This document shows positions 9,917 through 50,263 of a stretch of 64,000 nucleotides of DNA, piece by piece. Position 1 is the stretch's first letter. Every line of letters begins with the position of its first letter. Below the pieces are notes generated by a model, which made no database searches, had not been told where the DNA came from, and saw nothing but the letters and a program-made list of their open reading frames with translations. This DNA is from Balanoglossus misakiensis. Its lineage: Eukaryota > Animalia > Hemichordata. The translations under genes were made by a program, and so were the position numbers. Location of the stretch: the NCBI GenBank assembly GCA_040954595.2, contig CM082581.2, positions 11,902,286 to 11,966,285 on the forward strand, written 5' to 3'.

Positions 9917-10025
9917 CTTCTTGGTTGTCGCAGCTAATAACTGGCGGTTTTATAATGCCTGCTGAAATGCAAACCGATCACACAACGTCAGGTAGGTTTT
10001 CAACGAAAGTGATTCATTCTGTTCG

Positions 10026-13860: not shown

Positions 13861-16800
13861 ATGGTGAAAAATGTGAAAGTAACGGAGACGTCATCCACTG
13901 CCAAAACTGTCGTCTATGTGGACGATCCACCGGATGGGGGGTGGGGCTGGGTAGTCGTCGTAGCGGCCCACTTTGCTTTGCTGTTTTCTCAAGGCAGCCT
14001 GACCGGCTTCGGCCCATTCGCCATTCGACTACGGGAGTATTTCAAGACCGGGGCAGGTGAAATTGCAGGCGTCAGCGGTACTGCTTTATTCGTCACATTG
14101 GCAACAGGTATGTAAGTACAAACGGGTTAGCTACTGAGCATTGGTGGTATTTTATGAATCAGTGACGCAACCTCCCACGACCTACATTGCAGCAGACAGT
14201 ACGGTGAGCCTGTCACGCACACATTTGTGCGGAGGGACCGCTGTCTATGGTAAGAACGAAGAGGAAACAACCTTGACGCATGCACAGAGACCAGCCAGAT
14301 TATGGTGACTTCAACACGTACTAAATGTGTGGCAAATCCTCGTTGAACGATTTCACCCGTACTATAGACCGATTCACGGAAGCAGTCAGTAAATCAGAAT
14401 GTTTGTAAATCTTTAAGTAAAGAATAATAGAATCAATCAATCAATCAACGACAAGTCATTCAAGGATTATTAAAACACACAACAACATTCCCATTATCCC
14501 AACCAACCAACCAACCAACCAACCAACCTACCTACAAATTCATCCCCCGTGACCTTGTGGAGAATCCCTAAACAAACTTGAAAAGTCCAAGAATGAATCA
14601 ACATAAATCCTTTGAAGATATGAATCTGATGGATTACGTCTGATTAATTTGCTTGTTGTCTATAACTCCAACCCCAGGTCCAATTTCCAGTGCACTGAAT
14701 TCTTGCTGTGGTTGCCGTATCGTTGTGGTTATCGGAGGGATCATCGCAACCCTTGGTACGATTACCAGTTCATTCGCTACTCGAGTGTCTCATTTATACA
14801 TAGCTTATGGTGTCGTTACAGGTACGTATAAACAAGGGTCTATCGACTGCTTGCTTAAACACTGTTTGTTGATGATGTTACAATACGTGATAACATTTAC
14901 ATCAACACCCGTTACACCTATGGCGGTAATGCACGTAACTATACGTTGTACCATAGATACTTTTTTTTCTATTTTCCAGGTTTTGGCTATGGCTTGGTGG
15001 CCACTCCGAGCATCGCCTTCATCGCCAGGTATTTCAACAAGCGGTATGCGTTGGCAAATGGAATGGTCTTCTCAGCCTTCGCCATCGGTTGGATCGCTCT
15101 CCCTCAGCTCTATCAAATATTCCTAGATAATTACGGCTGGAGAAACGCCATGTTGTTTCTGGCGGCTTTGAACTTTCTCATTTGTCTGTGCGGCACTTGT
15201 TTTCGACCGCCTCCGCAGAAAAGCGTGTGCGCACCAAGACCGGCTCCTGTGGATATTTCTCAGCTGCTCGAACAACTGTTCAACAGAAACCCGTACACGC
15301 CAGCAGTGGGATTCGAGACGAACAAAACAAAGACAAACAAGCGACGAAGGACATTCTCAGAGATTCTCCTAACTTTTAAGAACAACAGGTGTTTAAAACT
15401 CATGTCCAAGATAATCGACGTCACCTTATTTTGTGATCCCAACTTTGTGCTAATGGCGACTGTGTACTTCATAATTGCTATTGGGTTCTACCCGACCATC
15501 CTCTTCTTGGTAGCCAGAGCTGAATCATTCGGGATACCATATCCACTACCCACCACCTTGATGACAATCACCGGGTCTGTGAGTTTGCTGGGCCGCACGG
15601 GGCATGGCTTCGTAATCGACGTTGGGGCGATGACTCCAGTTCGGGCAACTGCGTCAAGTTTACTTGTATGTGGCTTGGTGAACGTTTTCAGTGTTTTTGT
15701 CAAACAGTACATTGGACTGGCCTGTCTCTACGGGGTTTTTGGACTGGCCAACGGCATTTATCACCCGTTACTAGCTGTAACACTGAAGCATTTCGTTGGA
15801 GTTGAGAAGTTTCCCGTGGCCCTCGGGATTTGCAACCTCTGCCATGGACTTGGGGCTTTAATTGGGCCGCCTATAGCAGGTAAGGAGTCAATTTCGATTC
15901 ATATGAAACGGACAAGAAAGGGTCAACAATTTCAACTGCTTTAAATAGACGTCAGCTCTCCACTTTTAGTTTCTGCTTTACCATTCGTGCTCGTTTGTAA
16001 AATAGTTCTGAGCTCTTGGGTGCATTTAGGTACGTGTATCCTTAACAAGTGCAGCTGGGTGTGAGTTTGGCATTGATCACCTGGTTACTTACCTCAATGA
16101 CGTCATGCTCCAGTCGCTAAAATCTCATTACAACAAATTACAGGCAAAACCCCGTGGGAATGACAGATCACTGTTTGAGCTAACCTAGGTAATTATCATT
16201 GTCAACTAGCCAATTACCGGAGGTCCACCCAACCGAGGGATTAACCGATATTAGTTAACGGTCTCCCAGCAACGCGTATAGAGTGACACCCCCCGCTCAA
16301 GTGATTTCTGGGATTTTGTAACTGTACGACAATCAAATGATAGCTAAGATGTCACCGCCTGGTGAATAGATGAACCAACGCAGCTATCATGATCTAGATA
16401 TAATGTACAAGACTGTACACAAAGTTCGTGCGTGATAAGTGTCGATCAAAGAATGTGCCAATGCTTTCCAATGCACGTTTCTGCAATGCCACCCACCATA
16501 CACGTGGCGGTCACGCCGCGCCTTTCTATTTATAAAATATGTATACTCGCACCATCGCATCGCTCCACGCCCGTTTTATTTATATAATTTCTTAAATCGT
16601 ATCATCTTGATGTCTAAGCCGCCGCTCCCCCGCCCTATTTACGCACAGTGGCTCTCAAGTTTCCATCAGAGCGAAATAGAATAAGACTAGTATCTCGTCA
16701 CGTCCGAATGAAACTGAAAAAACCCGCGTAGGACAATAAAAGTAGAGTCACCTTGAACCACTAACCAGAGTAGTCCGGAATAACGTACGTGTGCCCGTTT

Positions 16801-23258: not shown

Positions 23259-26200
23259 ATGTCGGAACCACTGGGAACGCTGACTTTCAAATGGAATCCA
23301 AAGGATTTAGAAATCAGGACATATTCCGTGGAAAAGACGTTAGAACCGTTAGTACAACAGGTATGTATGAGCCAGTATTACTAGACTTACATGTACATCC
23401 CATCATGGCTATACATGTAACATCTATAGTGTACAATTAGTATACCGTTGTCTTCCAAAAATATAATACTGCTAAAATTATTTCAAAAGTGCTGCTTGGT
23501 TTCCCACTGTTTTGTCTACCAAAGAGAATGTTTGTTGTTTTGCTGAGAACGGTTTAAAATGGCAGCACACATTCAATGCATCGGCCATCAATGCCAGCTG
23601 TCAATGCACTCCATTGCAAGGACAAGGGCAATGACACCAGCACAATATATCAATCACAATTAGCACATAATGTCTGACCATGTTTTTATCGATTTCATTG
23701 AAAAAAGAAAAGTCTAGATTTTTTCTGCTTTTTCCACAAGAGACGTAAAGGCCTGTAACCTTCAAGTGAAGAATTCCTTTGGAATTTCTATGCAATTCAG
23801 TAAAAAACACACACACCACGCTTTTATTGTTATGCAAATCAACCTTTTAAAATAGCTGCTGTTTGGGTCCGCCAAGGTATGCAGCCTATTAAGCCAAAAA
23901 AGGGCAAATGAAAGTGTTTGTGTATGAGAGTAGAATATAAGTTTTGATTTCTTGTGTTTTCTCTTTGGTGAAAATGCATGTTTATGATAGTGATTCAGGG
24001 CAGGATATGTGGTTATTATAGATATTCACTACAAAAATATAAAAAAACCCACCAACATTTGATTTTGAAAAACAGTGTTTACACTAACAGCCAAATTACC
24101 ATATTGTCATTGTGTAAGACTCACACTATATTGCGGGTAACAAATATAAAAATTAAGGTTGCCCTTCTGAAAATATGTAGGTATTTAACTTCAGAATCTC
24201 AGATGACATTCAAAACAAGTCAGCGTTTTTGACTCTTGCTCTGTGTGTGCTATGTATTAAATGACAAAACCTGCTGCTTGTTAGACAGTATGTGTTAGCA
24301 ATCTGATATTCTACCAAGGCATGGCGATTTTGTCATTCTCAGCAAAATAATGTCATGTTGACTTTGATATAGACTAGCTCATTTACGCAAACTGTAATTT
24401 AAACCATTTTAATTAACAAACAAATGTTCATTCTTTAATTATCAAACTTAAGACTCAACCTTACATCATTTACACCGGAAAGATTCAATTACTGAAATCA
24501 GCATGAGGCTAATTTTCAAAGGCACTTTTACTAATTGTGTGAATGATAGAGAACATGACCTACCCTTGCCTTGTTGTATATATGGACCCAGGGGGAATTG
24601 ATAGCCCACCAATTACTCAGATGACAAGATCAAAGCCATGAAACTGACATCAAATAAAACAAATGAGCCCAGTCCTCCATTCCATCAATCACATGAAAGT
24701 TTCAGATTTCCACCACATGTGTTTGTTCACGCCATTCAAGGAGAATATTGTAATATAAGAGTTGGTTTCAATTTTCAGTGCTAGGTTTATCCAGATGACC
24801 TTTCACCCCACATCTACAAATTTTAATGACACGTCCAGACTGGTATGTTTGCTTTAAAGGCATTTACTGGTCTCCAACAGCTCCAGGCAAGCCCCAGGAG
24901 GAAAGAATGCATCGTGAAAGTCACACAATTTGAATGTTGCTAGCCATTCTATATTAAGTATGGTGATACTTTAATTTAGCAAAAACCCAATTATGTGATT
25001 ATGCAACATGTGAGTGGGAGGCTTTAATGATGGAATTCTTTATTATGGCAGTTAGTTTTATAGTTATGTCAACGCTATATGATATTTTACCCTAAACATT
25101 TGGATGTTAAATACACAGTCCAATTTGAAGCATACCTATAATAGAACAGCTGCGCTCCTTATCTCTCAGTAAATATCTGTGTGGTATGTTTTACCGGATG
25201 TCATTCATCATGAAAAAAATAGTGTGATATATGGTAACCATACAGTTTTGGTACACAAGACAATTTTGTACAGCCCAGTTATGTACATAGCCACAGATAC
25301 ACAGAGAGAAATGCACAAACATGGTTGCATGTGTACACATTCAGTGAAAGAATCCTGTGGACGTCAACACTTGGCAATTGTCTACATTACTAAAGGTTCA
25401 TTGGCTGTGTGATCATAGTCATTCATAATTTTAAAACAAATATTTATCGCCCTGTTTACAATTTTGTCCATGTATTAACTTTAACTCCAGCTTGTTTTAG
25501 TTCTCATTTTAGTTTGTGGAGACTGAACGCAAACAAGTGGCAGGTCATAAGGTTTACAGACATGCTCTCAGCAGAAGTGGGCATGACCTTTGTCAGAGAC
25601 TGAGGTCGATAAACTGTAATGACTGCCGGATGGAGAAAGTAACCATTCCGTGCTGGAATTTGAAGCACGTCATCTTGAAATATAACTCCCAAAATTTGCA
25701 TATATACACATCTTGCAGTGTGTTTGTGGAAAAGCAGTAAGAGCACACCTTAAGGCTTTGCTATTAGTGTGTTTAATGACATCTTGAACAAAAGGGCGTT
25801 AGAGTTCTCACTAAAGTCATAAAAAGTCTGAAGTAGTTGCATGCCAACACTAAACATAGGTTATCATCCGTTCATTGTCACTGAAAAAAGGGAAAAGAAC
25901 AAGTTTGTAGACTATAGGCAAAATCAAGGATTGAATTTTACCGATAATTAAAATTCCAATTAAAAGTACCAATTAAAAGTGACAAAATCAATGTATATGT
26001 GAGAATATTCAGCATGTGCTCCAGGCCCTTGAAATTCTGCAAATAGTTGGGTTTATAAAAGTCTAATAAAAATTATCCATGGTAAACTTGTTTAGCAGAA
26101 AACTGACCCAACACTGGTGCCTTATGAATAGAGCATTTACGGTACAATGGAGGACAAACCTCTACCTTTCAGTGAAACTTGAATAGGGGAAAGCATGTAA

Positions 26201-29200
26201 AAAGAAGTTCCTTTGATTGGCACAAGTCCTTTGCCATTATAAAGGCACTGAAAGAAATCTGGTATAAATAAATACACCAAATGTTGAGTATATTCACATG
26301 ACACCATCGTAGATAGTAGAGCGACTGTCGCTTGCTTCCAGGGAAAGCGCAACTCTAAGATGGTCACGTGACCATAATGCGCATCCTGCAGCTAATCCTC
26401 TCATTCACACGTCCGTCTTTCTTGAGGGACTGTGATATAACTTTCTTTGATAGTAACTGCAGCATGAAATCAAATCCCAAATAAAGACCAATAATATTAA
26501 ATAATAATAATGATAATAGTAATGTATGAAATAGAAATACGCCTTGACAAAACTTTATGCTACTTGATACAAACTCACTGGTTCAAATTTGCCCTGATTG
26601 ACGTATGACACACATGGTAAAGTTTAAACCTTGCTTGTATGAAACTCTCTTCAGGTGACAACTTTGGTCAACACAAAGGGACCTTCCAAGAAAAAGAAAG
26701 GGAAGTCCAAGCGAGCCCATGTCTTGGTTGCAGCAGTGGACAAAGCAACACAAACATTTATTGAAAAAGGAGAAGAGATAGCGAATGAAAATCCAGAAGT
26801 CAAGCAGGAAATGTTGGCAGCTGTTGATGAAGTCAGAAAAACAGGCAAGGAGTTTCCTTTGATTTTGTTTTTTTCTGAGATTGGATGACGTTTCATTGGA
26901 ATCAAAACTTCATTCAAGACATCACACTTTAGTTAATGGAAAAACCACCTGTTGATTTGCTTTGAGAAATAACATTTGATGCGATTTCATCCAGAACGAA
27001 CATGGCCTATTGGCCAATTTTGAGAAGAACTTCACGCGATCAGAAAACCACGGTAGTAAGAAAAACACTAGTTTTATTTCGCCGGCATACAACAGTAATC
27101 GGCAGTACAAAAACAATAAACGCCTAGTATTTTATATGCCCTGAACTTAGAAAGTTGCCCATCCAAACGCCTGCTTTGTCGAGTGTGCGGAAAAACGAAT
27201 CTGTCAAGTTTTCAAGTTTTTGTTTTTGTTTCGTAATATTATTCTCAGTCTTTCATTTGACGCATCGATTAAGGTGTATATAAGTAGAATTGAACTTACC
27301 TCATTTAATTAGTTTATCATGAATGTCAAATTCCGTTCTCCAGGAGAAAATATGAGACTTGCCTCCAGCGATTTTGCCGATGATCCATGTTCGTCTGCTA
27401 AACGAAGTAACATGGTCAGAGCCGCAAGAGCTTTGCTGTCTGCAGTCACGCGATTGCTGATCTTGGCTGATATGGTTGACGTTCAACTTCTGTTACGAAA
27501 TTTAAAGATTGTAAGTAAATACAATTCTTCTTATGACTTGAACAGATTGTTAGAAAATCCTTCCCGGTCCGCAGAACTTGAAATGAACATTCTTTTGTCA
27601 TGCAAATTTCGTCGTCTGCTACTTCTTGGGGTCGCCTCAGGTCACACTGGGGTCAAAGGTCATTTAAGGTGATTCCCTTCCAAGCAGCAGGCAGTTATTT
27701 ATTTCGTTGTTTTGATGTCGATTTCCAGTATTTTAGGTAATTAATTTTTTCTCAATATTACCAATATCATTTATACTTTTATTGAACACCAGACATACAT
27801 CAACAAATTTGGCTTTATATAAATTTATGTATGAACAAATCAAAACTCTTAGTCTGTTGTCTGTGCATGTCTGTGTAGTGCACTAAAATGTCTTAAAATT
27901 ATGATCTTCGACATAATAAATGCACCCCATTTTTGACACAGGTTAAGGCTGACTTGAAGAACATCAAAGATGCACGAACTGAACAAGAACTCAATAATAA
28001 ATACAAGACATACACTGAAGATGCAAATAAGTTGAATAAGATGACAGGCAGTAGACAAATGGTAATGTTAACTCTTTCACCATCATTAAGCTCCATCAAC
28101 TATATTTTTTTGCCAGTTTTTTCCCGGTATTTTTTTGTTTTATGTGTACGTGTCTGCAGTTTGATGAAATACCCACAATTCACTCATGCTCTCAGGATAA
28201 GAAACTTCATAACGATTTTCATCAATAAATAATGGTTCAAGCATCCGGACTTGATACAAACTTTTGTCATCTATACCTTCAGGATCTGAAAGATGCTGGT
28301 CACCGCGAGAAACTGGCTGGAGCAAGAGCTGACCTGCAAAAGCACGGAGACATTCTTCTTACATCATCCAAGGTAATTTTTACTTTCAAGTTTAGTTTTA
28401 AATCTCGTGTAAACTAGCAAGAAAAAGCTACTAGACTGTCATCTAAGCCCTCATAACACAATTACATTACAACATTAATGGTTAGCATTGATAAAGGTTG
28501 CATGATACGTCCCACACTAATGGTCACTCACGTACACTGCAGGCATACATCCGTCACCCAGAGGTTGCTGCAGCCAGAGAAAACAAAGAATATGTCATCA
28601 AACAGTTGAGCGATGCAGTCAACACCATATCAGATGTTGCACAGGCTGTGGGCAGATCAGAGCCAGATACATCTCTGTATGGACCTGGTGAGCTGGCAGC
28701 AGCATTGGGAGAACTTGATGTAAGTACATTTTGTGCATATGTGTGGACGTGCATACATCTTCGCCGGCAAGGGTCGAGCCAACGACCCATGCGAGTGGAT
28801 GATGACGTGCACGTGGTTACAGAAAAGTTATCAGTTTTACTATCAAAGAGTAATAGTTTCATATTGAATATGGACATAATCATAGAGAAAAACCCAAAGC
28901 AGCTCAATGATAAGGGTATTTCTTAATGACCTGTGATTCTTCTAGCGGGAAGTGCTGATGAGCCCTGCAGATTATCAGGAAAGACGCACACGGCCGTCAC
29001 TGGAGGAGAAACTAGAAGGTATCATCAGTGCCGCAGCTTTGATGGCCGACTCCACTTGTACCAGAGATGACACTCGAGAAAGAATTATCGCCGAATGCAA
29101 CAATGTCAGACAAGCATTGCAGGACCTCCTGTCTGAGTACCTGTCTTGCGTAAGTTGATCATTTTCTTGAACCAAAACATACCAGTCGGTCTTTCAAACA

Positions 29201-32200
29201 TATACCGGTACTTTGAATTGTGTGTGTGATTACTGGTAATCACAATTTTCTGTTTTTCAGGCTGGGCGAAAAGAAAGGACTGATCCACTTGACAGAGCTA
29301 TTGAAAGGATGTTCAAGAAAACTAGAGATTTACGTAGACAGGTAAAAGTCTTAAGTAATTGATGTGAACTTTATACTTGATGAACAAGTTTATGAGGTCT
29401 CTTGTTAAAATCAGAAGTATTGAGGAAAGATCCAAGGATGTCATCTTATGCTAATCGGAGAAATGTTCCATGATTTTGTCACCAGTTACGTAAAGCCGTG
29501 GTGGACCACATATCAGATTCCTTCCTGGAAACCAATTTACCGCTGCTGGTCTTGATTGAAGCTGCCAAGAGTGGGAACATCAAGGAAGTTGAGGAGTATG
29601 CTGGTGTTTTCCAAGAACATGCTAACAAACTTGTAGAGGTAGGTTACAACTCTACTGTTTGTAGGTCATTTTTAATTTTCATGCGATTTTATTGGCTCAT
29701 TGAAATTGATGTTAAATCTAGTTTTGATGTATAGAATATGTTCAACTTTAATCTTGCAAGGTATATACATTTCTGTTTTGTTTGTGTCTCACTTTTGTAG
29801 GTTGCCAACCTTGCCTGCTCGATGTCTCAGAATGAGGAAGGAGTGAAGTATGTGAGGATGGCAGCTCAGCAGTTGGAAAACTTGTGTCCCCAGGTAACTT
29901 TGAGATTGCTGATCATAGGCAATTACACACCTGTGTTTCTATACATGACTGTTGGACAGTGTCTAACCCTGCAGTGTGACTATGTACATGCCTGTGTGTG
30001 TAGAAGAGTATGTGAACATATACTGATATTCCTCCCTCATTTCACTCTTTCATGACTTTCCCAGGTAATCAACGCTGCTCGTATCCTAGCAGCCCGTCCA
30101 CGCAGCAAAGCTGCCCTAGATAACATGGATGCATTCAGAGACCAGTGGGAGAAACAAGTACGCTTGCTGACTGAAGCTGTGGATGAGATCACCACCTTGG
30201 ATGACTTTCTGGCAGTGTCAGGTAGAATCTAATAAAAAAATATGTTTAGTTTTAATTTCAGAGCTTTTGTCTGTACTTTGCTTTTAATGGTGACAAATCT
30301 GTTTGTTTCGTAGAAAAACACATTCTGGAGGACATTGGCAAGTGCAATGAAGCCCTGAAGGAGCACAATGGTGATAACCTGGATCGCTGTGCAGGTGCTA
30401 TCCGTGGACGCTCGTCCCGTGTCTGCCATGTTGTTGAGTCTGAGATGCAGAATTATGTGCCTAGTCCGTACACGGCTAAAGTACTGCATGCAGTGGATGA
30501 GCTAAGAGATCGAGGTAACATACACTAAGTCATTAACTCCACTGCAATGAAATCCAAAGAGGATAGTTTTTGAACATTTTTTTCGCATCAAAGTTGGTTA
30601 ACTTGATGTCATTATACATACACATCATTTATTATTATAAACTTAATTCAGACTTAAATGTCCATATCAGTGTAATGAAAAATGATTACAGAATCGCCTA
30701 TGTAATGTAATAACTGTCATTTGACTTAATTTCCTAACAGTGATGCCCAGATTTGCCAGGGAAGTTGAAGATTCCGTAGAAGGACTAACATCACGTCCAC
30801 CAAGACCTGTGGATGAAGATGAGTTTATGGATGCTGCGAAAATGGTCTATGATGGTGTCAGAGAAATCAGAAGGGCGGTCCTTGTCAATAGGGTATGGTT
30901 GATATTAAGGTAGTTGGAAAGGCTAGGGCGTCAGTTAAAATTTCATTTAAAAACACTGAATTTATATCTAGAAATGTATTAGAGAAAAATTAAACTCATG
31001 AAAAATTCGGGGCAATAAACGTGTAACAAGATATGGCTGGTTTTATGATACCTAATTTCATTCATCTGGCAAGGAAGCTAGGGAGCCTTATTTGAGCGCC
31101 CTCTAGGGGAAGACTTCTCCTAGGCTATGCGCACAAGGACGGGTTCCCCTAGCCAAGGGCATTTAAATGTAACTTGCAAACACTGATTCTTGCAATTTTC
31201 AGCGATAGATAACCTTGCTTGTTTATTAAAGGCTGCCAAATTATGGACATTTTTGCATTTCTAGGGAACCCGAAAGGCCAGCGGAAAAGCATTTGACCCA
31301 GATAAATGCGATCCTTCGCCGTGAACTGCCGCTAAACTTTGCGTATTTCGCTACTTTTCTGCCCTTCGCCATAATGTTATGGTTTTTATTTGTGATTGAA
31401 TTGGTATGCCAGATAATTCTTTTATTATGAAACTTTCAGGAAAGGCTCGGGACATCCAAAAGAACAATTTTACGGGACAGTTTTTTCATAAGTTTTCCCG
31501 TTGTGTTTTGGCAGCACGTTAAAGTTGTATACAAAATATCAACAAAAACTGTGTTTTCCTGAGTGATAACTTTGAAAAAAATAAGTTTTTGCTGAAAGTG
31601 TCCCATACATTGCTGGAGGGGTTGTTTCATATTAAAATGAATACAAATTATTCAATAATTTGTGAAAACATGTCAAGATTCAATCAATATTTTGTAAAAT
31701 TATGAATATTTATATTTAGGCGTATCAAATTTCATAATTTTAGCAGATATTTTTACAGTCATATTTTTCCCTCACTTTTTAGTTTGTTAAGAACACATGC
31801 TGCAAATTTCAAGTCATTATCTTTATTCTAACTTGTGAAAATAAATTCACAAACATTGAGAGAATTTGCTTCAAAAATAGCCTTTCCAACTACCTTAATT
31901 CTGTGTTAAAAGTGTGAATGACATTATAGTTACTCCTGTGTGGAGGGACTATGGTTAAGTTTAACACTGTGAAACCCAGCTTTGAAATGTGTGGAACAAA
32001 ACTTAGTGCAAAAACTTGTTAGTCTTGCTTCAACTTGATAATCATGAGTTTATACCAATAATAAAATTACAGTGTTTTTGAGTATTTTGCAGTTCAGAAT
32101 GTTACATCTTATCATTTTCTGTTGTAAATTTCTTGGATTTACATCAGATTGATTTTTTCCAGGATGATCGTGATGAAGATCTACCCAGTGATGTAGATGA

Positions 32201-35200
32201 TCTCTATGATGACAGTGGTGAGTAAATGCAAACAAACAAAAAAAGACAAACATTTTAACTTTAATTGACCTGTACATCATCTGCATGTGATTGGGCATTA
32301 ACAGAGAATGTCAGTCACACTAACAAAGGCAGGCTAACTCTTAGTTGGAGACAGCTCTGCATGATTGCCATGGCGATATGAACTTGTTTGCCCTCCCCGC
32401 CCCTGCGTTTCCTAATCTTTATTTCATCATAACTATCATTCTTTGCCACATTCATCTTACTGAATTTTCTCTTTCACATCTGGTTCTGACTCAGTCCTCA
32501 CACTTATCAGTTGTACCATCATCTACTAAACAATTGTTTTTAAGTTTACTTATTTATCAGACACATGAAGTTACAAAAGCCTATTAATGCATGATTTTTA
32601 TGAAGTACCAAATGGCAGTTTTAATCAAAATGAAAGCTTTCTAGGTAAGATATCACACTCTCCTTTAAGCCAATTTAATCATATTGACTTACAGGCATTT
32701 TCATGTTGTTTTAGGATTCTTTGACATAATGCACATTTTTCATTTATCCTTTCTTTTCCTTGACATCTCCCACTTGATACTTACATGGAACAGCCTATAA
32801 CTGAATGGTTATATTTGGTCACAATGTATTTTATATGGGGAAAAAAATACTTTTTTTCTGGTACAGAAATACCAAGTTACAGACAGTGCCATGTTCCATA
32901 GAATGCATGCAACATTTCCATTTCCGTGGGAACTCCTATCTGGTGTTATTTTATTTCCTGACTATTCTATCCTGTTTGGTGATGGTTTTATTTTCCAGTT
33001 ATTCTCTCTCCTCTTCTTTTCCTTTTTCCCTCCACATTTTCCTTCCTTTCCTGACAGTACATCTTCAGCCGCAAGGTGGCAAGCTCTTATCCCATGGCAA
33101 AACCAGAGAGGTCACAGTGGTGAAGGAACATGCCCCTCTCAGGTCGCCCCCTCCCCTCTCATATGCACCAAAACAAAATGCCACAGCGAGTAACTTTAAA
33201 TCAAAAACAAGTTCTGTACAAGAAACCGTGATAACTACAGTGACAAGGGTACCTGTACAACAGATGGTACAGACAACAACTAGTCAGACAAATGCAGAGA
33301 AATTATCCATGAAGCCCACAGATTGGACAGACAAGACAAAAGCCAATACTTTCAAATATGAAAAACCAAAATCTGATGTTGATTTTGGAAAGCAAAAATC
33401 AAGCACTTTGGAATACAAGCGAGAAAAAGTACCCCCTCCCCCTCCAGTCAGATGGAGTAAACCAGTGGGCTTGCAGTCACCAACTTCGCCCACTAATAAG
33501 TTGTCAACCATCACTGAGCAAACCATGACAAACCTGTCCCCCCTGTCCCATGGGTCCCCTCCCCCTCTACCTCAAATGTCACCACCACCACTGTCTCCAA
33601 CTAAGAAGGTTGCCGCAGAAACCGTCGTCATGGCGCCTGACTTTGTGAGGAGTGCAACTCTGCAGATAAACAGGAAAGAAAATTTGAAATCAGAGAGTGT
33701 GGTTGGCAGACCCATGTCTCCTGTTTCCCCGACTGGTTCTTACACAACTACCAAACTGGTAAATGTAAAATACAACACCCTGCCTTCGACTGCTGTGTAT
33801 GTTAAATTACCCAAAGATGAAACTCCGAGCAGTGTTAAGACAGATCTGAAAGATTTAGCAGCTGCTACTCCTGGTACAGTTACCACGACAACTTCTGTTG
33901 CAGTGAGTGGCTTCCAGCATAAATTTGGTCCAGTGCACTACGATCAGTATGCGCCGGAATTGGAAAAAGCAGCGGCTGCAAGATATGGAACCGGTGTTGG
34001 TGGGAGAGGCAGGGATGAAGAAGAAGGCAGGTATTTGTACGGGCCAGATGGGCAGCCAATATTGGGACCGGACGGACACCCTATAGTGATTGCACCAGAT
34101 GGTACTTTGGTGGATTCACAGGGAAGACCACTGGGTGTGAACAAGAATGGATATTTGGTCGATCCGGAGGGAAGACTTATCTATGGTCCGGATGGAAAGC
34201 CGATCCTGGTTGATCCGGATGGCAAGCTGATGACGTCAGACGGCTATGCTCTGGTCGGCCCTGACAACAAGCCAGTGCACATGGGAGAAGATGGTCGCTT
34301 GTACAGCAGTGATGGTAGACCGCTGATTTCAATTACGGCTGATGGTCGTTTAGTCGGGGCAGATGGTAAGGCACTTCCTATTGGTGCAGGTGGTGCTGTC
34401 ATTGGTGCGTACGGTCGACCAATCATGACCGCCGACGGACGTCCCTTGACTATCGCCAATGACGGTAAGTTATTAGACCCAGAGGGCAGACCGATATCTA
34501 TCGACAGCAACGGAATGCTTGTGGGTCCTGATGGCAAGCCCATCCTTGGAGCTGATGGCAAACCCATGTATGTGGATTCACAAGGCAGGCTTCTCGGCTA
34601 CGACGGCAGGCCAATAATTGGCCTCGATGGAAGACCCATCATAATCAGCCCAGAGGGAATGCTGCTGGGTGCTGACGGCCAACCCATCAGGGGGTGGCAC
34701 AAGTATGATCCGCTGAGAGCGCCCGGTGGCTGGCAGACCTACATGGAACAGGATGACTGGTCCAAAGCTGCACAGGACAGAGAACGAAGCAAGCATGCTG
34801 AAAAACTGGTACAGGAGACAGGACCTGAGATAACCAGAGAAGTAAGTGTACTGATCATATTTCCGCAACTGCAGCAAGTTATTTTTGGTTGCTGACATGG
34901 AAATGTGTTCAGATTGAGTGTTAAGTTTTCAGACATGTTTTGCTATACATCTTTGGCTCTCTTAAGATTTCCACTATGACCATAACTGCATATTACATAC
35001 ATCTAAGATAATTAAGCTGGAACAACATGGATTCTACAATTTGAGCAACTGATGATGGCATCGTTTCTTTTGACAAAATATTTGACATGTTTTTTTGCCT
35101 CTTTAGGAAATCTTGGCTCAGTTTACTGAAGCTGAGAAGGAGCAGATTGCAATGCAAGTTGAAGAATTTGAACAAGAAAAGCAGAGATTGGAACAACAAG

Positions 35201-37553
35201 TTATCTACCAGTGGGACGACACTGGCAATGACATCATCATCCTGGCCAAACAGATGTGCATGATTATGATGGAAATGACTGATTTCACCAGGTGAGCTTT
35301 CTGAAATATTTTCATGATTGTATTTTTTGTCAGTGTCAAAATAAATCTTTTATATCCAGGTGCAAGTTTAATACCATGCTTTCTTATTTTTCTCTCGATT
35401 GCAGAGGTCGTGGTCCACTGAAAACCACCATGGACGTGATCCACGCAGCCCGACGGATTGCCAATCTTGGCTCCAAGCTGGACAAGCTGGCCCGCACCAT
35501 CGCCAACATGTGCCCTCACTCCACCTCCAAAGATGATCTCATCGCTTACCTGCAGAGGATAGCACTTTACTGTCATCAGTTGAACATTTGTAGCAAAGTG
35601 AAAGCTGGTGTGCAAAGTGTTAGTGGAGAACTAGTGGTGTCAGCTGTAAGTTTAATCCAAGAAACTGCATGTGATATTTCACTAATGATCTTATATTGTA
35701 ACAAATACGCATGCAGCATCTTACACTGAAAGATCCTTCATTTGAGGGCACGTACTCCCCAGCAGAGCCCCCTCGAATGACAGATCTTTCAGTCTAACAT
35801 CTCTACTATTGTCTTCCACCAACTCTTTGCACTCTCTCTCTAAACATATATTGTATTAACTCATTTTTAATTCGAATCTGATTTTAATTCAATCATATCT
35901 TTTGATTATTGTTATTATCATTGATATTTATATCCCTACCCCAATCACGTATCATTTAACCATACTCACTCATTTCAAAACTCATTTTAAACTCATCTCA
36001 TTGGACCTATTGGTTTAAATCATTTCATACTATCTTGTTATGTCCTTCATATACAATACTTGGAATCTTCAAGTTGAGGGAGATATTGAATGTTACTAGT
36101 ATTCATTTTGTCAGAGTGGGAACAGTTTGGTACATCTCATTGTGACTTGTTTTATCATCATGACAGTATCATCAAACACCATTTGGAGTGGTCCATCACC
36201 AACTATAAACCCTGCTCCCGCCCCCAAAAATCTGTCAGAAACTTCTCAGGACATGTTCTTTCTAAAGCCATCTGCAGGTGTGCTGTGGTGCCTTCTCTAT
36301 TGCACTGCAAATATAAACCCTACCACTTCACGGTGCAGTGTGTTGAATGTGACACAGGGGTGACTGGGTTAACACTTGGCAATAGCCCGAGCACTGCAGC
36401 TTTGCCTTTGAACTTGCAAGAAGAAATGTTGATCCACGTGAAAATGACATAAATTAACAATTTGAAATGTTTGTTCAAATCTTAATCCTCGAAGGAAGAA
36501 CGACGGCGTGCAAGGGTATTTTACATTCATTTATTTTTCAGTTTTCATGGCTTATCTTGGTTCCTTGAGTTTTTGGCATTTCTGGGCTCAGAGATATCTT
36601 TAGTCGATTCATTATTTACCACATACATTAGTTATGCATTGTGTCTTATGAAGGTATTTAATCCCCCCCCCCCTCCTTCATTAATTCAGTCTGATGTCAT
36701 GTCTACTTTTCAAGTCAAGACCAATATTGCCGTGTGAAGGGACTTCATCCATTTAGTTTGTTAACAGGTGTAAATGATTGATATTAATGGTTCTCGATTG
36801 CAACAAATATGAATGCCAATGCTGATGTAACATTTATATGTGAATGTACGCCTTCATCTTCTTTGTGATAACTGCCAAATCAAATTAACTGCACTGTTGT
36901 CTTTTTATGGGCAGTATAAACCGGGTGAGGACAAGCTGGAAAATTATAATTGTTGACGTATATCATAAATAACGGTTTCACTATTTTATTTCAAGCTTGA
37001 CAGTGCCACTTCGTTGATCCAAGCCGCCAAGAATTTGATGTCAGCCGTGGTGCAGACAGTAAAGGCGTCCTACGTAGCATCAACTAAGTACAGTAGACAA
37101 GGAACGCTCAATGTTAGGGTATGTATAAAGAAAAGAATAGTGGCCTTCTGTGTTTGAGGTCGCACTAACAGGCACGGTTGTTCTTGAGGACTGGCATTCA
37201 TCAGGAGCACAAAATCTACTGTCGAGGAAAAAAATCAGCACAGTGGGGCTTTTTTTCTTTACAGCTTTGCACAATCTTGATTAGTGAATGATTGATGCAA
37301 CTGTTGGTGTTGCCATATTTGTGAGAGCAGGATTGTTCTGAAGACACGCATTGTGTGATTACGTCCTTCTTGTTTTTCACAGTCTCCTGTGGTATTATGG
37401 AAGATGAAAGCCCCAGACAAGAAACCCTTGGTGAAGAGAGAGAACCCGGATGAAATGAAAGCAAAAGTTCACAAGGCAGCCAAGAAGAAGGACATCAACA
37501 TTGTTCAGGAGTTGAATGAATTCAAAGGAAGTGATAGTTTCTCAAGTGTCTAG
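23259..37553 (+). CDS. CTNNA: Alpha-catenin, 19 coding exons, ~1479 aa including a giant linker exon
   Basis: Exons 23259-23360, 26655-26844, 27344-27510, 27942-28061, 28283-28372, 28543-28719, 28946-29149, 29261-29341, 29486-29638, 29801-29893, 30065-30221, 30314-30514, 30741-30892, 32163-32217, 33058-34841, 35107-35291, 35405-35645, 36996-37112 (or -37118), 37383-37553. Hallmark peptides: KWNPKDLEIRT..VEKTLEPLV, FADDPCSS, RERIIAECNNVRQALQDLLSEY, LRKAVVDHISDSFLET, WDDTGNDIIILAKQMCMIMMEMTDFTRGRGPLK, LDSATSLIQAAKNLM, WKMKAPDKKPLVKRE. Confidence 0.95.
30909..31894. mobile_element. Non-autonomous DNA transposon (Kolobok-like) in an alpha-catenin intron
   Basis: Perfect 17-bp terminal inverted repeats GGTAGTTGGAAAGGCTA (30909-30925) and TAGCCTTTCCAACTACC (31878-31894), flanked by TTAA on both sides (30905-30908, 31895-31898). 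GG...CC termini with a TTAA target duplication fit Kolobok rather than piggyBac (CC...GG). No transposase ORF. Confidence 0.8.
33058..34841 (+). CDS. Giant (1784-nt) alpha-catenin linker exon: Pro/Ser/Thr-rich region plus 27 x 8-aa GxDG[KR]P-type repeats
   Basis: Preceded by a ~55-nt almost pure polypyrimidine tract and cag (33055-33057). The phase-1 start matches the upstream exon 32163-32217, and the phase-0 donor GAA|gtaagt matches the downstream exon at 35107. No stops over ~595 codons. Confidence 0.8.
35725..35793. repeat. Imperfect inverted repeat / 69-nt hairpin in an alpha-catenin intron
   Basis: ACTGAAAGATCCTTCATTTGAGGG pairs with CCCTCGAATGACAGATCTTTCAGT: a 24-bp stem with 2 mismatches and one G:U. 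Confidence 0.7.
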
Positions 37554-42568: not shown

Positions 42569-45500
42569 CTACCCTCTCCTGCAAGAAAAGAGTTTTCTCA
42601 GTAAATCCACCATTTTCTGTCGAACTTGTTTATTGGTCCACGTGTAGATGATTGGGTTGAGCATGCTGTTTGCGTAAACAATCCACATGGCAGTTACCCG
42701 GATGTAGCGATGGATTTCGAGTCCGTCCACGTAACACGAATTGACCACAGCGTACGGTCCCCAACACATGAAATAAACGATGATTAGAATAGCGCCTGCA
42801 GTGAAATAACACATTTTGAAAAGATCAGTGTTTCATCGACATTTCTTTTTCAAAGATGACAGCTAGGGCATTGGAAAATTACACCTGGCGGCATGAGTAC
42901 GCTTATTGAGTATTTTTCTACATTAGAAAACAGTTTTGATAGATTAGCCAATTATGTACCTGTTTAACTGAAATGCTGTCGCTCTACGCGAACACGTCAC
43001 ATTTATCATGTCTATAAGTCTTTGGTTGGCCATGAGTCCACGCCTGGTAATTTGAAATCTGTCTTACACGTTGGCTGGGGGAATCTTCATATTAGTATAC
43101 CGCTAGCGATTTTACCTGTTATGGCAACTCTCTTCTCCGCCCTCAATGAAACTCTTGCCGGGGGCTGATTGCTTCTCTCCGGTACAGTGCCGGCAGTATC
43201 ACCCGTGCCCGCCGTATTAGAGAAACCGCTGGGTTGTATGACCACGTGGAGTCCCTGACCATCGCTGATGCCGCCACGACCATTATCCGTTCCCAATGAG
43301 TCTTGGGTCACTGAAAACTCAGCAAGATCTCGCCTTGGTCCCGTGCGCACAGTGATGCACTTGACCTTGGCGTTGCTCGCTTTAAGCTTTCTGTAGATGA
43401 AGACGTATGACGTAGCCATGACCAAGACAGGTATCACTAGCCCCAGGACAACCACGAGAGTGTAGTACCCACAACTTGAAGTCCATACTGGCGAACAGTG
43501 ATGGGTTCCTGTGGGAGGGATGTTATATGGGAAAGCAAAACTTTTTTCACGTTACATTCGCTAGAGTACAGAAAAAAGCAATGCACTTTTGAATTAGTGC
43601 AATCAATATATCTATTTGTAGCAAAACGGAACTCACTATATTCCACTTAATTCAAACCACGCAGTTATATGCATATACTTGCATCGTTAATTTCTACATT
43701 CGACATTTTTTAAAACTTTACCGGTAGATAATGCATGCGAAGCAAAAAGGGCGCCGAAAGCCTACTACCTGACTTTATGTTAACAGCATAGTGAGTGGCA
43801 ACTTTCATCCTTCAACATTTATTTTAAAATATAACTTTTACCGAGAAATTTCGATTAAAAATAGTATGTCACGAAGCACGCAATCTACCTTAATTGCGTT
43901 TCATCATTAATGCCATTGCCATAGTCTCCATTCATGTGATTACTTATAAAGGCTTAAATTATTCATTCCCCCTCATTGTGTAAAGTGCTTCTCCGTGTTT
44001 GTCTAATTTATACGTACAGTTTTTTTGTAATACAAGCTCATCATTTGAACCGTTTTAGTTAGATTGGAGTTGTGCCTTGCATAGCACATGCCCATTTAAA
44101 GAGAAAAGGCACCTTACCTGGATTATAGGAATAACTGGACCAACCGAAGAGCGGAAGTGCACACACGATTGCGCTGCTCACCCAGATGGAAATAATGACG
44201 AGAGTGACCTTCTTCGGAGTGATGAAATCGCGATATTTTAGTGGGCTTGTGATGGCGAAAAAGCGATCGAGAGAAATCGCTGTCAGCGAAAACGTTGATG
44301 CACCAATTAGTGTGCAGGACATGAAACCGTTAAACTGAGGAAAAAAGAATATGATGATCGGTTTAAGGCTATACTGCAAGATTGGTACGTGCAAATTAGG
44401 GATAGAGCATTTAATGTTGGAAGGGGGTTTGGAATTAACACTTGCCTGCTTGATATCATGAATAACTACGGCCAAAGAATTAAGTGACAGTCACAGAGAG
44501 GGGGATTATACTAAATAGGTATTGAAAATAAATTCAGTGAGTTTCGTTGCAGCGACGAATCAGTCGTTGATTGGCCTAACCACGGATATTGTTATGCAAA
44601 GTGAGGTCATGTTGGGTTCAAGATCGCGGAATCGCATCGCCGGTGTAAATAAAATGTTCAATAATCACCTCTCTTTTATTCCATGTCACCTTTAAAAGCT
44701 CGCATTTTGAAAAATAAAACTGCACAGTCCCCCACTGTTAATTCTATCAAGGCCCTTATCACATGAATCATTTACTTTTATTAATATGCGTTGCAGAAGG
44801 TATAATCTATTTATTACTTACAAAAGAACCCTACTGATATATCCTTTTTTTGACGCATCTTAATACAGCGCTGACTTTTAAAAGACGGGTTGAACTTTGA
44901 AATGTCAATGCGCCCAAGATAATATTCAATTGACGGAAAAATCATTTTAGGACTACACGATATATGATAACACTGAATTGTAATATACAGGCCAAGAAGA
45001 AAAGCTTCCTTGCTACGGTGTCTTGGCAAGCAATGCGAGCAACAGCAAATATAGGACTTTTTTATCTAACCAATGAAATAACAGACGCTATTGACAAACT
45101 TGATTTTCTGGAGTCCGTAAACAGTCATCTTTGTAGTTAGGTATACGACTTGTGAGTAAAATTTGACCAGAAAAAAAATATGGAAATAAGTGATATTGAC
45201 AAATTATCTAGGGTTGATACCGAAATTGACTTTAGCGGGATAATCCGGCGTCAAATTCTCTAGGTATTTTTCAGGAGAAAATCGATTTAATGACCAGCTA
45301 AATTCGTATAATGCATGGTGCACTAGTTTCAAGTTTGATTTTTCAGGAGTTCGTCAATAGTTGTCTTAGTACGTATACGACTTGTGGGTAAAATTTGACT
45401 AGAACAAATCTGGAAAATAAGTGATATCGACAAACTATCTGGGATGTATATTGCAATTGACTTTGGAAGGATAACCCATCGTCAAATGCTCTACTTGTTT

Positions 45501-47810
45501 TTTTAATATATGAGAAGAAAATCGATTTAACGACCAGTTGAATTCGCACAATGATCGCGGTGCACTAGTTTCTTGCAATGTTCATTTTGAACTTCTCACG
45601 CGGAAATTAAAACGTGCAAAAATTGTTCTTGCCAAAAAAAACTAGGAAAGATTTGGAATTGGTTTCATCATTGAAAAAAGCCTGAAGTCACGTGGTCTAT
45701 CTGAAAGCATTCTCTTTTAGTATTTGTATTCTTACGCAAGAGAATGAGAATCGTGTGCTAGTATTTTGCTTGATTTAGTGCTGGCTTAATGAACCTAACA
45801 AAAGAAACACTCTCACCGTTACGTATCGATTTTTTAAAAATAAACGAATACATTGTAATAGACAATGGTCAGAAAATGACATTCATCGTCTCCAGCACTC
45901 TCATCAAAATATTTACACAGTCTCCATCTTTTAAATTGTGATTGCGCTTTCTTTTAAAACGCTTACAGAGAATGCTCTGCAGGTTAACATGTTGTCGGCT
46001 CGTCCTAGTTTACACGCTGAACGTAAACACAGTATGTGAATGGCCCTGCTGCAGTTGTAAAATGTCAGGTGTTGTACGTTTTAATTTGGTTGTTTTGGTA
46101 ACTGTCTTTACACTGAAGGAGCAAAGTCACCCACGATTGACATTATTATATTAATTTTTGTCAGATTATATTGCCCTGTTGAATATGCTGATATTACAAC
46201 TTTAACTCAACGTACACCTTGTACCTGTTATAAGGCTTTCATGACAGGTGTGCAGTTATTAATCGAACGATTCGTCTTTCTGCGACCGAACTGCGAAAAA
46301 TAAGATGGAAAATGACACTGTATGACGCATGGAGATATCGCGGTGTGAAAAAGAAAATTGACAATTCGAGCAAGCATCCATTCTCCCCGTTAATTCTCCT
46401 TCCTAATCGAAAAAGGAAAACAGTTTCCATGGTTTCGACTATGCGCCTCGAAAATTAAACTCTCAAACTTGTTCTCATATTATGCCCAAGGTAACTTTAG
46501 ACTACGCGTTCCACAGTAATGTCACACGAAACCTAAGCATGTAACATGATCTTACTATAGTAACGACGTCTTTTCAAAAACTCTTTAAATGATATTAGCG
46601 TCAACGTAAGTTTGTGTCATGATTGTCCTCGTCAAGAGAAGCGTGGTGTCAGCTTGTTAGGATAAGAAGCATTTTACCGGATTTGTATGTATATCATTTC
46701 TTGAGGTGTACAATACTTCATAGATATGTAAACATTACAGGTGTAACCTTACCACGAGTGAAAGTAATGCTAAAACAAAAGTGATAAACTGACCTTTATA
46801 AATTCACACAAGAACTTTGGTGAAGTTTGTTGTTTTAACGCATTTTGTTGTAAGATCTCATTTTGAGGGCGACTGCTCAAATTTGAACAACCTGATTCAG
46901 TTGACGTGGACATGTTTACAATGACTTCATAATTATAGTGCTGAATGTGTGATTTAAAAGCTGTGGGATTATAGTGAGCCCTGTTTAACCTCGTAAAAGG
47001 AAACTAAATTATTCTGTTTGGAATGATCTAGGTCGGTATAATCTGATTCAGATGATGCCATAGTATAAATAGAATCATATACGCATCTTTGATGTTACAT
47101 GTTCATTGCATTGGTTTTTCTCTTTGAAGCAAAATTTATGTAGACCCTCAAATTTGGAAAGCGAGACCACTTACATTTCAGGGTCTGTGCTTGTGACTGA
47201 CAAACTTTCGAGCTCCCGGGGCTTTAAACACCTGGCCGAGTATTAATTTTCATCATAATAACGACGAAATGTCAAGCTCAAATCGCTTTGTTTCATCCGT
47301 CGAAAACGCAGTTAATAGATCTCCGAGGATGTTTTCCTAACCAAGCGGAACATTCTATCAACGGTCTACGCGTGAAGAAGGGGCTTCTTGCAAATCAACA
47401 GGTTGCGGCATATTTCCTCTAAAAACTCAGTGAGCATTTCATCTTGTTCTCTCGTTCCTTCAGCAAAGATTGCCAAATAAAACGAGCGCCTGCCTTCAAC
47501 AAGGTTCCGCGCTGGCTGGATGAAATCAAATCATACGTACCATGCAAAAAGGAGCTGATGTCCACAACACGTTGGACTTCAAGAAGACAGAGACAACTGC
47601 AAGAGGCATGCACGTCACGGCCAAAGTGACGTCGGAAACGCTCAGGGCAAGCAGGAGTTTAAAGTGCGGCTTAATTCGAAACTGCGCATTTTTCAGGATG
47701 ATGTAGCACCCCAGTAAGTTGAAGACAATCGTAAGCAGTGCAATGGTTGCCAGGGTAATCCCTGGAATAAAGACATCATACGCCGAATGAAGGACGTCGG
47801 CAGCTACCAT
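42569..47810 (-). CDS. Class A (rhodopsin-like) GPCR, orphan, 4 exons, ~368 aa
   Basis: Exons (minus) 47810-47541, 44334-44118, 43508-43116, 42795-42569, in frame. TM1 FN, TM2 LSVSD, C3.25, DRF, TM4 W...LPLFGW, ECL2 Cys, TM5 IP, TM6 CWGP, TM7 NPIIY, helix 8. Confidence 0.9.
45101..45572. repeat. Diverged tandem duplication, 2 x ~235 bp, in GPCR intron 1
   Basis: Copy 1 ~45101-45330 and copy 2 ~45337-45572 share colinear blocks: GTATACGACTTGTG, AAAATTTGAC, AATAAGTGATAT, AATTGACTTT, GAAAATCGATTTAA, GGTGCACTAGTTTC. Confidence 0.8.
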
Positions 47811-50263
47811 TGCTCCCCGGCGCCGACTGCTAACGCACTGGAGTAGGCCGGCAGTTTTTGTGGAGTCGTCACGTCACGTCTTGTACCAATCCGCAACCTC
47901 ACATTCGTCAATTATACTTCATACATTATTACTGAACGCGGCATACAACCCTCGCGGAATAAAATGAATATGGATATATCAGAACTGCGATTCAGCGTAG
48001 AGTATGATGCGATATTCGACAAGTGTCCAATTAGGGAAAAAATTCGTCTTGTACAGACCCCTCCCCCTTTAAAAAATTCAAATACCTTGCGGCTTTCCAA
48101 CTCTTAATAATTATGTTCTTTTCTTAGCATGACAAAAAGATAATTATAATAACGTCACTAGGACATGTTAACATGGGTTGTAAAGAGATGTTTTTTGATG
48201 GTCGCCCACATGCTTCACCAAGACGTGTTTTCTTAAATTTAACAAGAGTCAGACAAACGAAACAGAGATACAGTCGTTGGGGGCGCCAATTGTCTTTCGG
48301 TCGAGGAAGACGCCACCTTTGAGACCTTCCATTCCATTTTGCACCTTTATTGCTCTGAGTTGCTTTCCTCTCCAGACTCCATGGTTCACTTTAATTCTTG
48401 GTCAGAGTTCAAAACACTATTTTCTGACTCGCATTTATCTGCTAGTTAAAGATCGAATAGGATTCAAACCTCCATGTTTTGCTGTGTTTGATCTTCAAGG
48501 AAACAGAATCATGTGATGTGATGATACATACGCTACAAGAATTTTTGTATTTTATTTTTCATATTTACATGAAAATATCTTCTACAAATAGGAAAAAATC
48601 CGGCATTTGAACACTATACATACTATAAAGTGAGGCAGTTATTTACGTGTATAAATTTATTTATACAAATCACAGTTGAAAAAAGTTGCACTAATTTGCT
48701 TTGGATGGTGTCATGGTGAAGGAATACATCAGGAATGACCAATCAGGGAGGGTTTAACACTCTGGAAGGCAAGCAAACCCCTACACATCTACAAGGAATG
48801 ACATAATTGGCTGTCTTTTGCAATCACTGGTTACAGTATACCATTGATTAGACAAAATGTGCGTTTGTAGGGCATAGGATAAAAGTATTATTTTGGTTTT
48901 GGTCATGTGTGTACTGTAAGTGAAGTACAAAGAATTTAGCCATTATACCTCACTTTGGGGTCAATCACAAATCAGGTTTTCAGGGTCAAAGTTCAAAGGT
49001 TCTGTTTCCTGTTTTCAATCCTGTATACAGGTGGGGAAATAACATGTGCTTGTGAAAGTATGGCAAGAAAATTGTAATAGTTCAATGTTTTCCATAAAAA
49101 TGACAAAAGTCAAAGGAAAGGAAAAAATGACAAAACCAAAACTCTTAAATCAATGTTGAAAAAATACATATTTACAATATTGATACAATTTTGAAGTAAA
49201 TATTACTCCATACATAAATAATTCGCACTTTTTAAAAAATAAATACACAATGTTAAGTTTTCAGTTCATGTTGTATATTAAAGGGATACAACAGAGCTGA
49301 ATATGTTGGAAACTATCAAACCTCAAAAAAACTACTTGAGTTGCTAGCATTGAAAAACTTTCTTTACGATCCAGATAGCATCAGTAAATCTGCAAGGTTC
49401 CCAACAGAGCGATACCGATCATTTCTCTGAGTAGAATAATTAACTTTGGGCAGGTGCTTAATCTTTGATGAATACAAAACAAAATAGTACTGTTTTCAGT
49501 CTTTGTTTTAACACTTGGATCTGTCAAAGGACAAGATTACACTGGCTTCACCAGGAAAGAAATTGAAGCAATCATCAATCCGACTTACATGAAAATCACC
49601 ATGAATATAATTTTTTTCTTATTTATCAAGTTTGCTAAGAACGAAACACAAAACCTTTTTGTTTTACAAGCAGTCATGGCTGGCCTCAACAGAAGTTAAT
49701 GCTGTGCTCTGTCAATGTTAAAGCTATCCTCTACACAAGAAAAGAGTCCTTCTACAGAAGTCACAGTTGTCATCTGCAGGGGAAAAGATTCTCTCTAATT
49801 ATACGCAGGGAAGTTATCACCTATAAAAAGAGTTGTCTTTTACAGAAATCAGAAAACATGTATCCTCTTTAGAAATCAAAGTACACCAAATAACGTGGCC
49901 CTCCCAGAAATTGTGCGAAATGGAGATCAGTATTTCAGATAGAGCTGTATACATATATTTACATCTCCACTACTGCCTTGTTATGCGTACAATCACAACC
50001 CAGGGTCTAGAATCTTATCTAAACGCTCTACACTTATATTATAAGTTGTCACAACCTTTATGTCCAACTACTGCTTTACATAGCACCATGGTATCCGTTG
50101 CACTGAACCATATATTAAATAAATAGAATACCTTTTCTGTACATGTTCTGCTACTTCTACTTTCTGTTCATTACACTTTGATCTTTCATAACAAAAATGT
50201 ATGTAAAAAATCCTCTCATATGGGAAGTCAACAAAGACCCCACATTTGGTGTCACCAGGACAC

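Follow-up and report, generated by a model that had tools for sequence, protein, structure and literature searches.

The window, meaning the whole 64,000-nucleotide stretch of Balanoglossus misakiensis DNA that was analysed, contains an alpha-catenin gene. This gene is flanked by an MFS transporter gene (14644-15944, +), a rhodopsin-family GPCR gene (43087-47873, -) and an MA3-domain gene that looks PDCD4-like by eye (54648-61854, +). Two cytochrome P450 genes, which match Pfam p450 and appear CYP26-like by eye, lie tail to tail at 1569-2021 (+) and 6369-9949 (-). The alpha-catenin gene carries a long insert in the linker between the M domain and the actin-binding domain (ABD), and its features are as follows.

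23259..37553, + strand: giant-hinge alpha-catenin paralog with 19 coding exons; 1481 aa in the long form, 1199 aa via the internal acceptor
32163..32217, + strand: acidic linker exon, first half of the phospho-linker; 55 nt, phase 0 in, phase 1 out
32339-32354 and 33591-33606, no strand: 16-nt perfect inverted repeat that spans acceptor 33058
33058..34841, + strand: large exon, long form; 1784 nt, preceded by ag and followed by gtaagt, phase 1 in, phase 0 out
33058..33903, + strand: 5′ extension of 282 aa; rich in Thr, Pro, Ser and Lys, probably disordered and probably subject to alternative inclusion
33432..33464, + strand: PPPPP-x-RWSKP motif, kept in 3/3 long forms
33771..33785, + strand: Y-x-T-L-P motif, kept in 3/3 long forms and found in the linker of normal hemichordate paralogs
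33904..34841, + strand: core exon; 938 nt, 312 aa, common to all forms
34026..34679, + strand: beta-hairpin repeat module; 9-aa lead, two lobes, non-repeat middle
34053-34316, + strand: repeat lobe 1, 88 aa
34317-34415, + strand: non-repeat middle, 33 aa
34416-34679, + strand: repeat lobe 2, 88 aa
34680..34841, + strand: C-flank; conserved GW-x-K-[YF]-DPL-x-APG motif, predicted helix into ABD helix H0, 50-75% identity
35107..35291, + strand: first ABD exon (H0-H1-H2), phase 0 in

The large exon of the alpha-catenin gene

All three of the flanking exons that were tested match Pfam Vinculin, and outside the linker the gene is 91% identical to the giant paralog of Ptychodera flava, its sister in the tree described below. 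The initial annotation had placed the linker exon at 32163-32217, the large exon at 33058-34841 and the start of the first ABD exon at 35107; these coordinates and the accompanying phases are exact, and the ~1479-aa product that it proposed agrees well with the 1481 aa of the 19-exon model. Intron 2 begins with a GC donor at 26844/26845 (ACAG/gcaagg), and RKTGENMR is read across this junction in orthologs. Intron 13 contains 22-nt perfect inverted repeats (30904-30925 and 31878-31899) that lie 952 nt apart and probably mark the termini of a MITE-like element.

The large exon runs for 594 codons without a stop, which has a chance of ~1e-16 at the intronic stop density of the gene (0.0596 per codon), while its other two frames contain 13-17 stops per half. 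This open frame and the orthologs described below bear out the earlier view that the insert is coding and lies in the M-ABD linker, and the insert is conserved in hemichordates. The acceptor at 33058 has 17 pyrimidines in 20 positions, the maximum in the gene (the other 17 acceptors have 12-16), and is preceded by an AG-free zone of 58 nt. It had been called a very strong polypyrimidine acceptor, and the tract is the strongest of the gene, though a small matrix trained on the gene scores the site at only 3.3. The large-exon junction is in the same register in the window and in Ptychodera isoform X1.

When the large exon alone is skipped, the computed product shifts frame and reaches a stop within 7 codons, as had been predicted for direct joining of the flanking exons. 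Skipping of both the large exon and the linker exon keeps the frame, and gives an 868-aa protein in which the linker is gone. The reported lack of small substitute exons also holds, in that, of 986 open candidates with phases 1 and 0, none outside the large exon scored like a real exon (best intronic score 8.3, compared to 10.2 for the large exon).

Relatives, paralogs and functional residues

When the exon product was searched against longer proteins, 28 matches came back, and the top five are predicted acorn-worm alpha-catenins. Giant orthologs occur in Ptychodera flava (1545 and 1197 aa), Saccoglossus kowalevskii (1465 and 1214 aa) and Glandiceps talaboti (1200 aa, with a further cluster member of 1207 aa). 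They are already in RefSeq as unnamed predictions, and every feature tested places the giant-hinge protein in the alpha-catenin family. The identity of the window to these three species is 87-91% in the N and M domains and 86-92% in the ABD. A passage in PMC4729200 places the split between Saccoglossus and Ptychodera at over 370 million years before the present.

The length of alpha-catenins is nearly fixed. Among the best 120 of 1738 matches to the 1197-aa protein, 115 are 888-965 aa long, and the five exceptions are the giant proteins of acorn worms. Five echinoderm species appear among these best 120 matches, with proteins of 907-920 aa. Glandiceps and Ptychodera each have a second alpha-catenin of normal size, at 918 aa and 919 aa; the accessions of the pair, in no set order, are XP_070539853.1 and XP_077991933.1. 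No normal paralog of Saccoglossus is present among the best 120 of 1738 matches, and tblastn with the normal paralog found no second copy in the window. The normal hemichordate paralog is 69-70% identical to the giant form and shares the YxTLP linker motif with it, but it has a short linker and, unlike the giant form, keeps the R670-equivalent and the S-x-x-S-x-x-T relay.

A tree was built from 21 rows with the linkers removed; Lineus, Lamellibrachia and Nomia were dropped from it, and it has no chordate or cnidarian rows. In this tree the giant proteins, four in number, group together (100/100) on a long stem (0.38), and the two normal-size proteins of hemichordates are sister to them (96/95). 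An AU test leaves a grouping of the normal hemichordate proteins with those of echinoderms unrejected (p 0.138), and an older duplication or long-branch effects may be compatible with this result. Judged by sequence, the giant-hinge gene is a duplicate alpha-catenin of acorn worms. The giant and normal genes of Ptychodera and Glandiceps have the same listed longest-contig size, which suggests that they share one chromosome within each species. A normal-size paralog exists in two of the three named species, so that the giant protein is not the only alpha-catenin there and ordinary adherens junctions do not call for a new architecture.

The giant ortholog aligns end to end, through its N, M and ABD regions, with alphaE- and alphaN-catenin (CTNNA1/2; PDB 6upv, 4igg) and their invertebrate kin (1140 bits). 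Pfam Vinculin matches the three orthologs at 1074-1093 bits in two stretches beside the insert. An identity as vinculin was considered and rejected, since the giant protein nests among alpha-catenins (996-1140 bits) and matches vinculin only partially (173-177 bits). Functional residues were mapped by alignment of the Ptychodera ortholog to human alphaE-catenin (6upv_M), and the window translation was checked by eye. The equivalents of D392, D503, K525, R548, R551, L785, I792 and V796 are kept; eight of nine residues are identical, and D500 is replaced by Glu as in the normal paralogs. The M-domain salt-bridge residues are described in a section of PMC12393524, and the actin contacts L785, I792 and V796 in a section of PMC6269467. 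The serine equivalent to S641, a CK2 site according to the same section of PMC12393524, is kept in the linker exon at 32163-32217, ahead of the insert.

The rest of the linker is much changed. The linker span of other alpha-catenins has a median of 51 residues and a range of 39-86 (89 of 115 proteins, since 26 failed the motif parse), while that of the giant proteins is 336-353 aa in the short form and 604-684 aa in the long form. Past the insert, the giant sequences have RS[KR]x[A] at the place where the CK1-type relay S-x-x-S/T-x-x-S/T is found in 83 of 111 parsed normal proteins. RAIM670-673 aligns with EEIL, so that R670 is replaced by Glu across the 34841/35107 junction, and the giant ABD has one extra residue ahead of the conserved Trp. 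R670 is reported in part of PMC6269467 to hold helix H0 on the bundle, and part of PMC9402232 attributes the catch bond to H0-H1 undocking.

Fixed changes in the giant paralogs occur at 38 of 533 conserved sites, compared to 0-15 in three control sets (39 were listed, and one alignment artefact within the insert was removed). The H0-H1 region has 6 of its 18 conserved sites changed (Fisher p 0.0009 for a region chosen post hoc, with p 0.06-0.65 in unbiased scans). The M1 vinculin site has 6 of 45 (p 0.09), and the N1 region, which is the beta-catenin site, has 4 of 92 and no excess. On this alignment, the H0-H1 catch-bond latch is altered in the giant paralog.

Splice forms, arm and repeat module

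The large exon contains an in-phase internal acceptor at 33904 (matrix score 6.5) that was overlooked in the initial annotation and leads to an open 1199-aa form. The equivalent junction is found in four of the six database proteins (one from Ptychodera, two from Glandiceps and one from Saccoglossus; 1197-1214 aa), in which the acidic linker runs straight into [VA]-[SG]-[GA]-F. The long form is carried by the other two, Ptychodera X1 and the older Saccoglossus model. All of these orthologs are predicted RefSeq models, and those of Saccoglossus have evident splice or read-through errors. The codons TT[TS]SVA/[VA] upstream of the 33904 junction are kept in all three long forms. It is likely, as far as predicted models can indicate, that the length of the insert is switched by splicing at two 3′ splice sites, with a 282-residue arm in or out. 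Some form of the exon had been thought obligatory, and this is correct for the gene; the full 595-aa exon is not obligatory, because four of the six orthologous database proteins join at the internal acceptor.

At the end of the exon, TREVIIVIHHWKSLAQF stands in both Saccoglossus models, probably through a mis-predicted splice, and the long model has an intron-like insert ahead of the linker. The two Glandiceps isoforms differ by a 7-aa ABD insert after ELVVSA. The length of the 16-nt inverted repeat is reached in 1 of 2000 codon shuffles and in 1 of 216 window block pairs. A candidate RNA duplex of this repeat could bias splicing toward 33904, a lead that comes from a single species. The exon also has a cryptic donor at 33110, weak, in phase and likewise overlooked earlier, which would give a 904-aa product; it arises because the start of the extension (33101-33123) resembles the exon end (34832-34854; TRE-V, 74% over 23 nt).

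The 5′ extension, or arm, is 59% identical to that of Ptychodera X1 and 32% identical to that of the older Saccoglossus model, and it is absent from both Glandiceps models. It is of low complexity and rich in indels, with a length of 237-348 aa and an internal duplication of ~50 aa in Ptychodera. Its alignment to Saccoglossus scores 213, compared to 98+-14 in local shuffles within 10-residue windows, and none of 1000 rounds reaches this score. Since this collinear similarity exceeds that of local shuffles, the extension is under constraint. The PPPPP-x-RWSKP motif fits the class II SH3-ligand pattern PxxPxR, and a SATL motif is also kept in the extension of the long forms. YxTLP is found in 2 of 115 normal-size alpha-catenins, both from hemichordates; because the motif is common to the normal hemichordate paralogs, it points to an origin of part of the arm in the second half of the ancestral linker.

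The insert had been viewed as a single extensible element. It is better described as two modules, the variable low-complexity extension and a predicted folded repeat that does not vary in length. This 222-aa repeat has an identical length and no indels in four species, and the window is 76-86% identical to the other three. Invariant positions number 144 of 218 in the repeat and 26 of 33 in the middle, its most conserved part. The repeat segments are 7, 8 or 9 residues long and end in [DN]G-type turns. Each lobe is identical to its ortholog at 60-80 of 88 positions and to its sister lobe at 39-51 of 88; because each lobe is nearer to its ortholog than to its sister, the repeat positions are individually constrained.

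AlphaFold2 models of the repeat alone, from a 56-row alignment, have a block pLDDT of 82-97 in both lobes and 52-59 in the middle (pTM 0.53), and all of their secondary structure consists of short strands. In a model of the full 1197-aa ortholog, for which 5 of 69 alignment rows cover the insert, the N, M and ABD regions form the usual helical bundles, and the repeat, again predicted with confidence, lies between low-confidence flanks (pLDDT<50). This full-length model (pTM 0.36) does not pack the insert against M or ABD in any defined way. Foldseek searches with the predicted repeat found no fold match in the PDB (TM<=0.14) or among viral structures (TM<=0.15). In a VIA search of 48161 chains, the best row was a beta-trefoil at Z 3.5 (rmsd 3.0, 67 aligned of 126), and none reached Z>=5. 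These partial beta-trefoil rows (Z<=3.5, ~70 residues) hint that a predicted lobe is compact, and at nothing more. A PDB sequence search with the repeat gave a partial best match at E 0.006, and the ESM Atlas gave no usable match. The missing structure match does not establish a new fold; the predictions covered the two lobes together.

Possible roles and origin of the long hinge

In current models, a ~33-aa linker couples the opening of the M domain with phosphorylation of the linker and with the catch bond of the ABD. A functional parallel is offered by vinculin, whose proline-rich hinge leads from head to actin-binding tail and binds VASP, vinexin, ponsin and Arp2/3 (from a portion of PMC5501900). 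Metavinculin has a splice-controlled insert near the tail (from a portion of PMC6726196). The giant alpha-catenin is proposed to have such a proline-rich hinge with docking sites, but in vinculin this hinge measures 61 aa and lacks a folded module, and the 68-aa insert of metavinculin is located inside the tail.

The reading that we hold somewhat more probable than its denial is that the gene encodes a neofunctionalised junctional alpha-catenin, in which a folded repeat makes the hinge a scaffold and a splice-switched proline-rich arm bears SH3-type and phospho-motifs. After duplication, one copy would have kept the ordinary junction job, while the giant copy, to judge from its kept residues, would still bind beta-catenin and F-actin. 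The old phospho-linker would have been split, with the CK2-type serine ahead of the insert and the S-x-x-S-x-x-T relay missing behind it. Partners might be recruited by the folded module and by the SH3-type and YxTLP motifs where load passes to actin, by analogy with the vinculin hinge, and the charge changes in H0-H1 might loosen or retune the catch-bond latch. Such a protein could, speculatively, serve at high-load junctions, for example between the myoepithelial cells of the proboscis, which in Saccoglossus are joined by adherens junctions (described in part of PMC4081662). A bolder form of this reading, which we regard as doubtful though worth stating, is a second class of cadherin-actin junction with a beta-hairpin hinge domain of undescribed fold, a rewired catch-bond latch, and a splice switch that alters the tether by ~280 residues and brings in SH3-type sites, which would amount to a natural experiment with M-domain force sensing uncoupled from actin binding.

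Other readings address partly different questions. The hinge may be, in line with the extensible module proposed initially, a mechanical spacer or spring that lengthens the M-actin tether, with lobes that unfold under load as shock absorbers. The insert sits in the load path (PMC9402232, in part), and the arm would lengthen the contour by ~100 nm (282 x ~0.36 nm). Its low complexity and its indels also suit a spacer, and similar repeats are found in VirB10/TrbI stalks (7 of 24 scanned), nematode DIG-1/mesocentin, plectin-repeat, protein 4.1 and filamin-domain proteins; elsewhere such repeats belong to very long stalk-like proteins, and this suits a spacer no less than a scaffold. A spacer with no other role should, however, tolerate the gain and loss of units, while the length of the repeat is unchanged in four species, its non-repeat middle is its most conserved part (26/33), and the arm holds short motifs against a background of 32% identity. 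We therefore consider the spacer unlikely, though it comes closest among these readings. A protein that has lost its tie to cadherins, with a repeat that dimerises or binds membranes and bundles actin outside junctions, would agree with the symmetric two-lobed module and with an altered H0-H1 that could raise constitutive actin affinity. It is quite improbable given that the N1 beta-catenin region has no excess of fixed changes (4/92).

Two further readings concern the products of the gene. If only the short form via 33904 is made, the 5′ extension would be open intronic sequence caught by gene predictors. Four of the six database proteins are short, both Glandiceps models are armless, the newer Saccoglossus model has dropped the arm, and the matrix favours 33904 (6.5) over 33058 (3.3). 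Against this, 282 open codons have a chance of ~3e-8 at the intronic stop density, Ptychodera X1 is 59% identical with the same junction register, and collinearity with Saccoglossus exceeds 1000 shuffles. The strongest pyrimidine tract of the gene also lies at 33058, and YxTLP is common to the normal paralog, so that production of the short form only seems improbable. A main product of canonical size, made through a 53-nt cryptic exon at 33058-33110 (904 aa) or by the double skip (868 aa), would be in frame, and KTRE closes the cryptic exon just as it closes the real exon. This is very improbable, since the donor GAG/GTCACA is unlike the other 17 donors of the gene in that model and is impossible at the equivalent Ptychodera codon (Ile). 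The in-phase AGs close to the 3′ end show 5-11 pyrimidines in 20, and no ~900-aa product of the giant paralog is found among the best 120 matches or the six cluster members.

No description of a hemichordate alpha-catenin of the giant-hinge kind was found in the literature searched, which leaves much subscription literature and many supplements uncovered. Term look-ups gave no hemichordate terms in PMC3141441, PMC3933685 and PMC4265756. PMC3216324 mentions cadherin only and the word 'catenin' is absent from PMC4729200 and PMC13554239, while two supplement files each of PMC11618098 and PMC12768270 contain no match. A hinge of 300-600 aa kept for more than 370 million years, with the normal paralog as a built-in control, makes the roles of linker length and M-ABD proximity in force sensing testable. 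The reach of the finding is limited to one small phylum in which a normal paralog acts as buffer, and the function is a predicted one.

The repeat of the window is a compact, conserved case of a widespread and structurally unsolved repeat. Similar DxxG repeats have 265 representatives at E<=0.001, and the 24 repeat proteins scanned include seven with TrbI/VirB10, three with VWA, one with plectin repeats and one with a FERM/4.1 domain. The exon-product search likewise matched two filamin-domain proteins and a mesocentin-like protein. DotG/IcmE (VirB10) stalks, DIG-1/mesocentin, beta-flower proteins and snail 4.1 share the [DN]xxG turn and a spacing of 7-9 residues with the window repeat, but their repeats are mostly long and variable, while that of the window is short, fixed and two-lobed. 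BLASTP identities between them are mostly 23-39%, with gaps. Neither TrbI nor VWA/FnIII domains, as expected of DotG/IcmE/VirB10 or DIG-1/mesocentin members, were found in the exon or its orthologs. The beta-flower fold, a closed symmetric barrel of 8-12 strands that often encloses a helix, has a [DNEQ]xxG tip motif, as described in part of PMC10584680, and this motif is present at the hairpin tips of the window repeat. The PF21784 beta-flower profile scores the isolated repeat at 24.3 bits, below its cut-off of 25, over 43 of 116 profile positions, and is not listed for the three full orthologs.

A horizontal donor was sought and rejected: GTDB genomes yielded 0 of 62 candidates, metagenomes yielded 10 of 586 with 24-31% identity, and stand-alone proteins were at 27-45%. 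A transposon or DNA tandem-repeat origin was also rejected, as TRF found a 19-nt array only. Because no close kin of the repeat and no donor were found, a local origin via hairpin duplication appears likelier than transfer.

The snail Physella acuta has a protein 4.1/FERM protein labelled mesocentin-like (XP_059167298.1), with ~1100 aa of DxxG hairpins between its FA and CTD domains. The repeats of this 4.1 protein are a parallel insertion in another junction-cytoskeleton linker.
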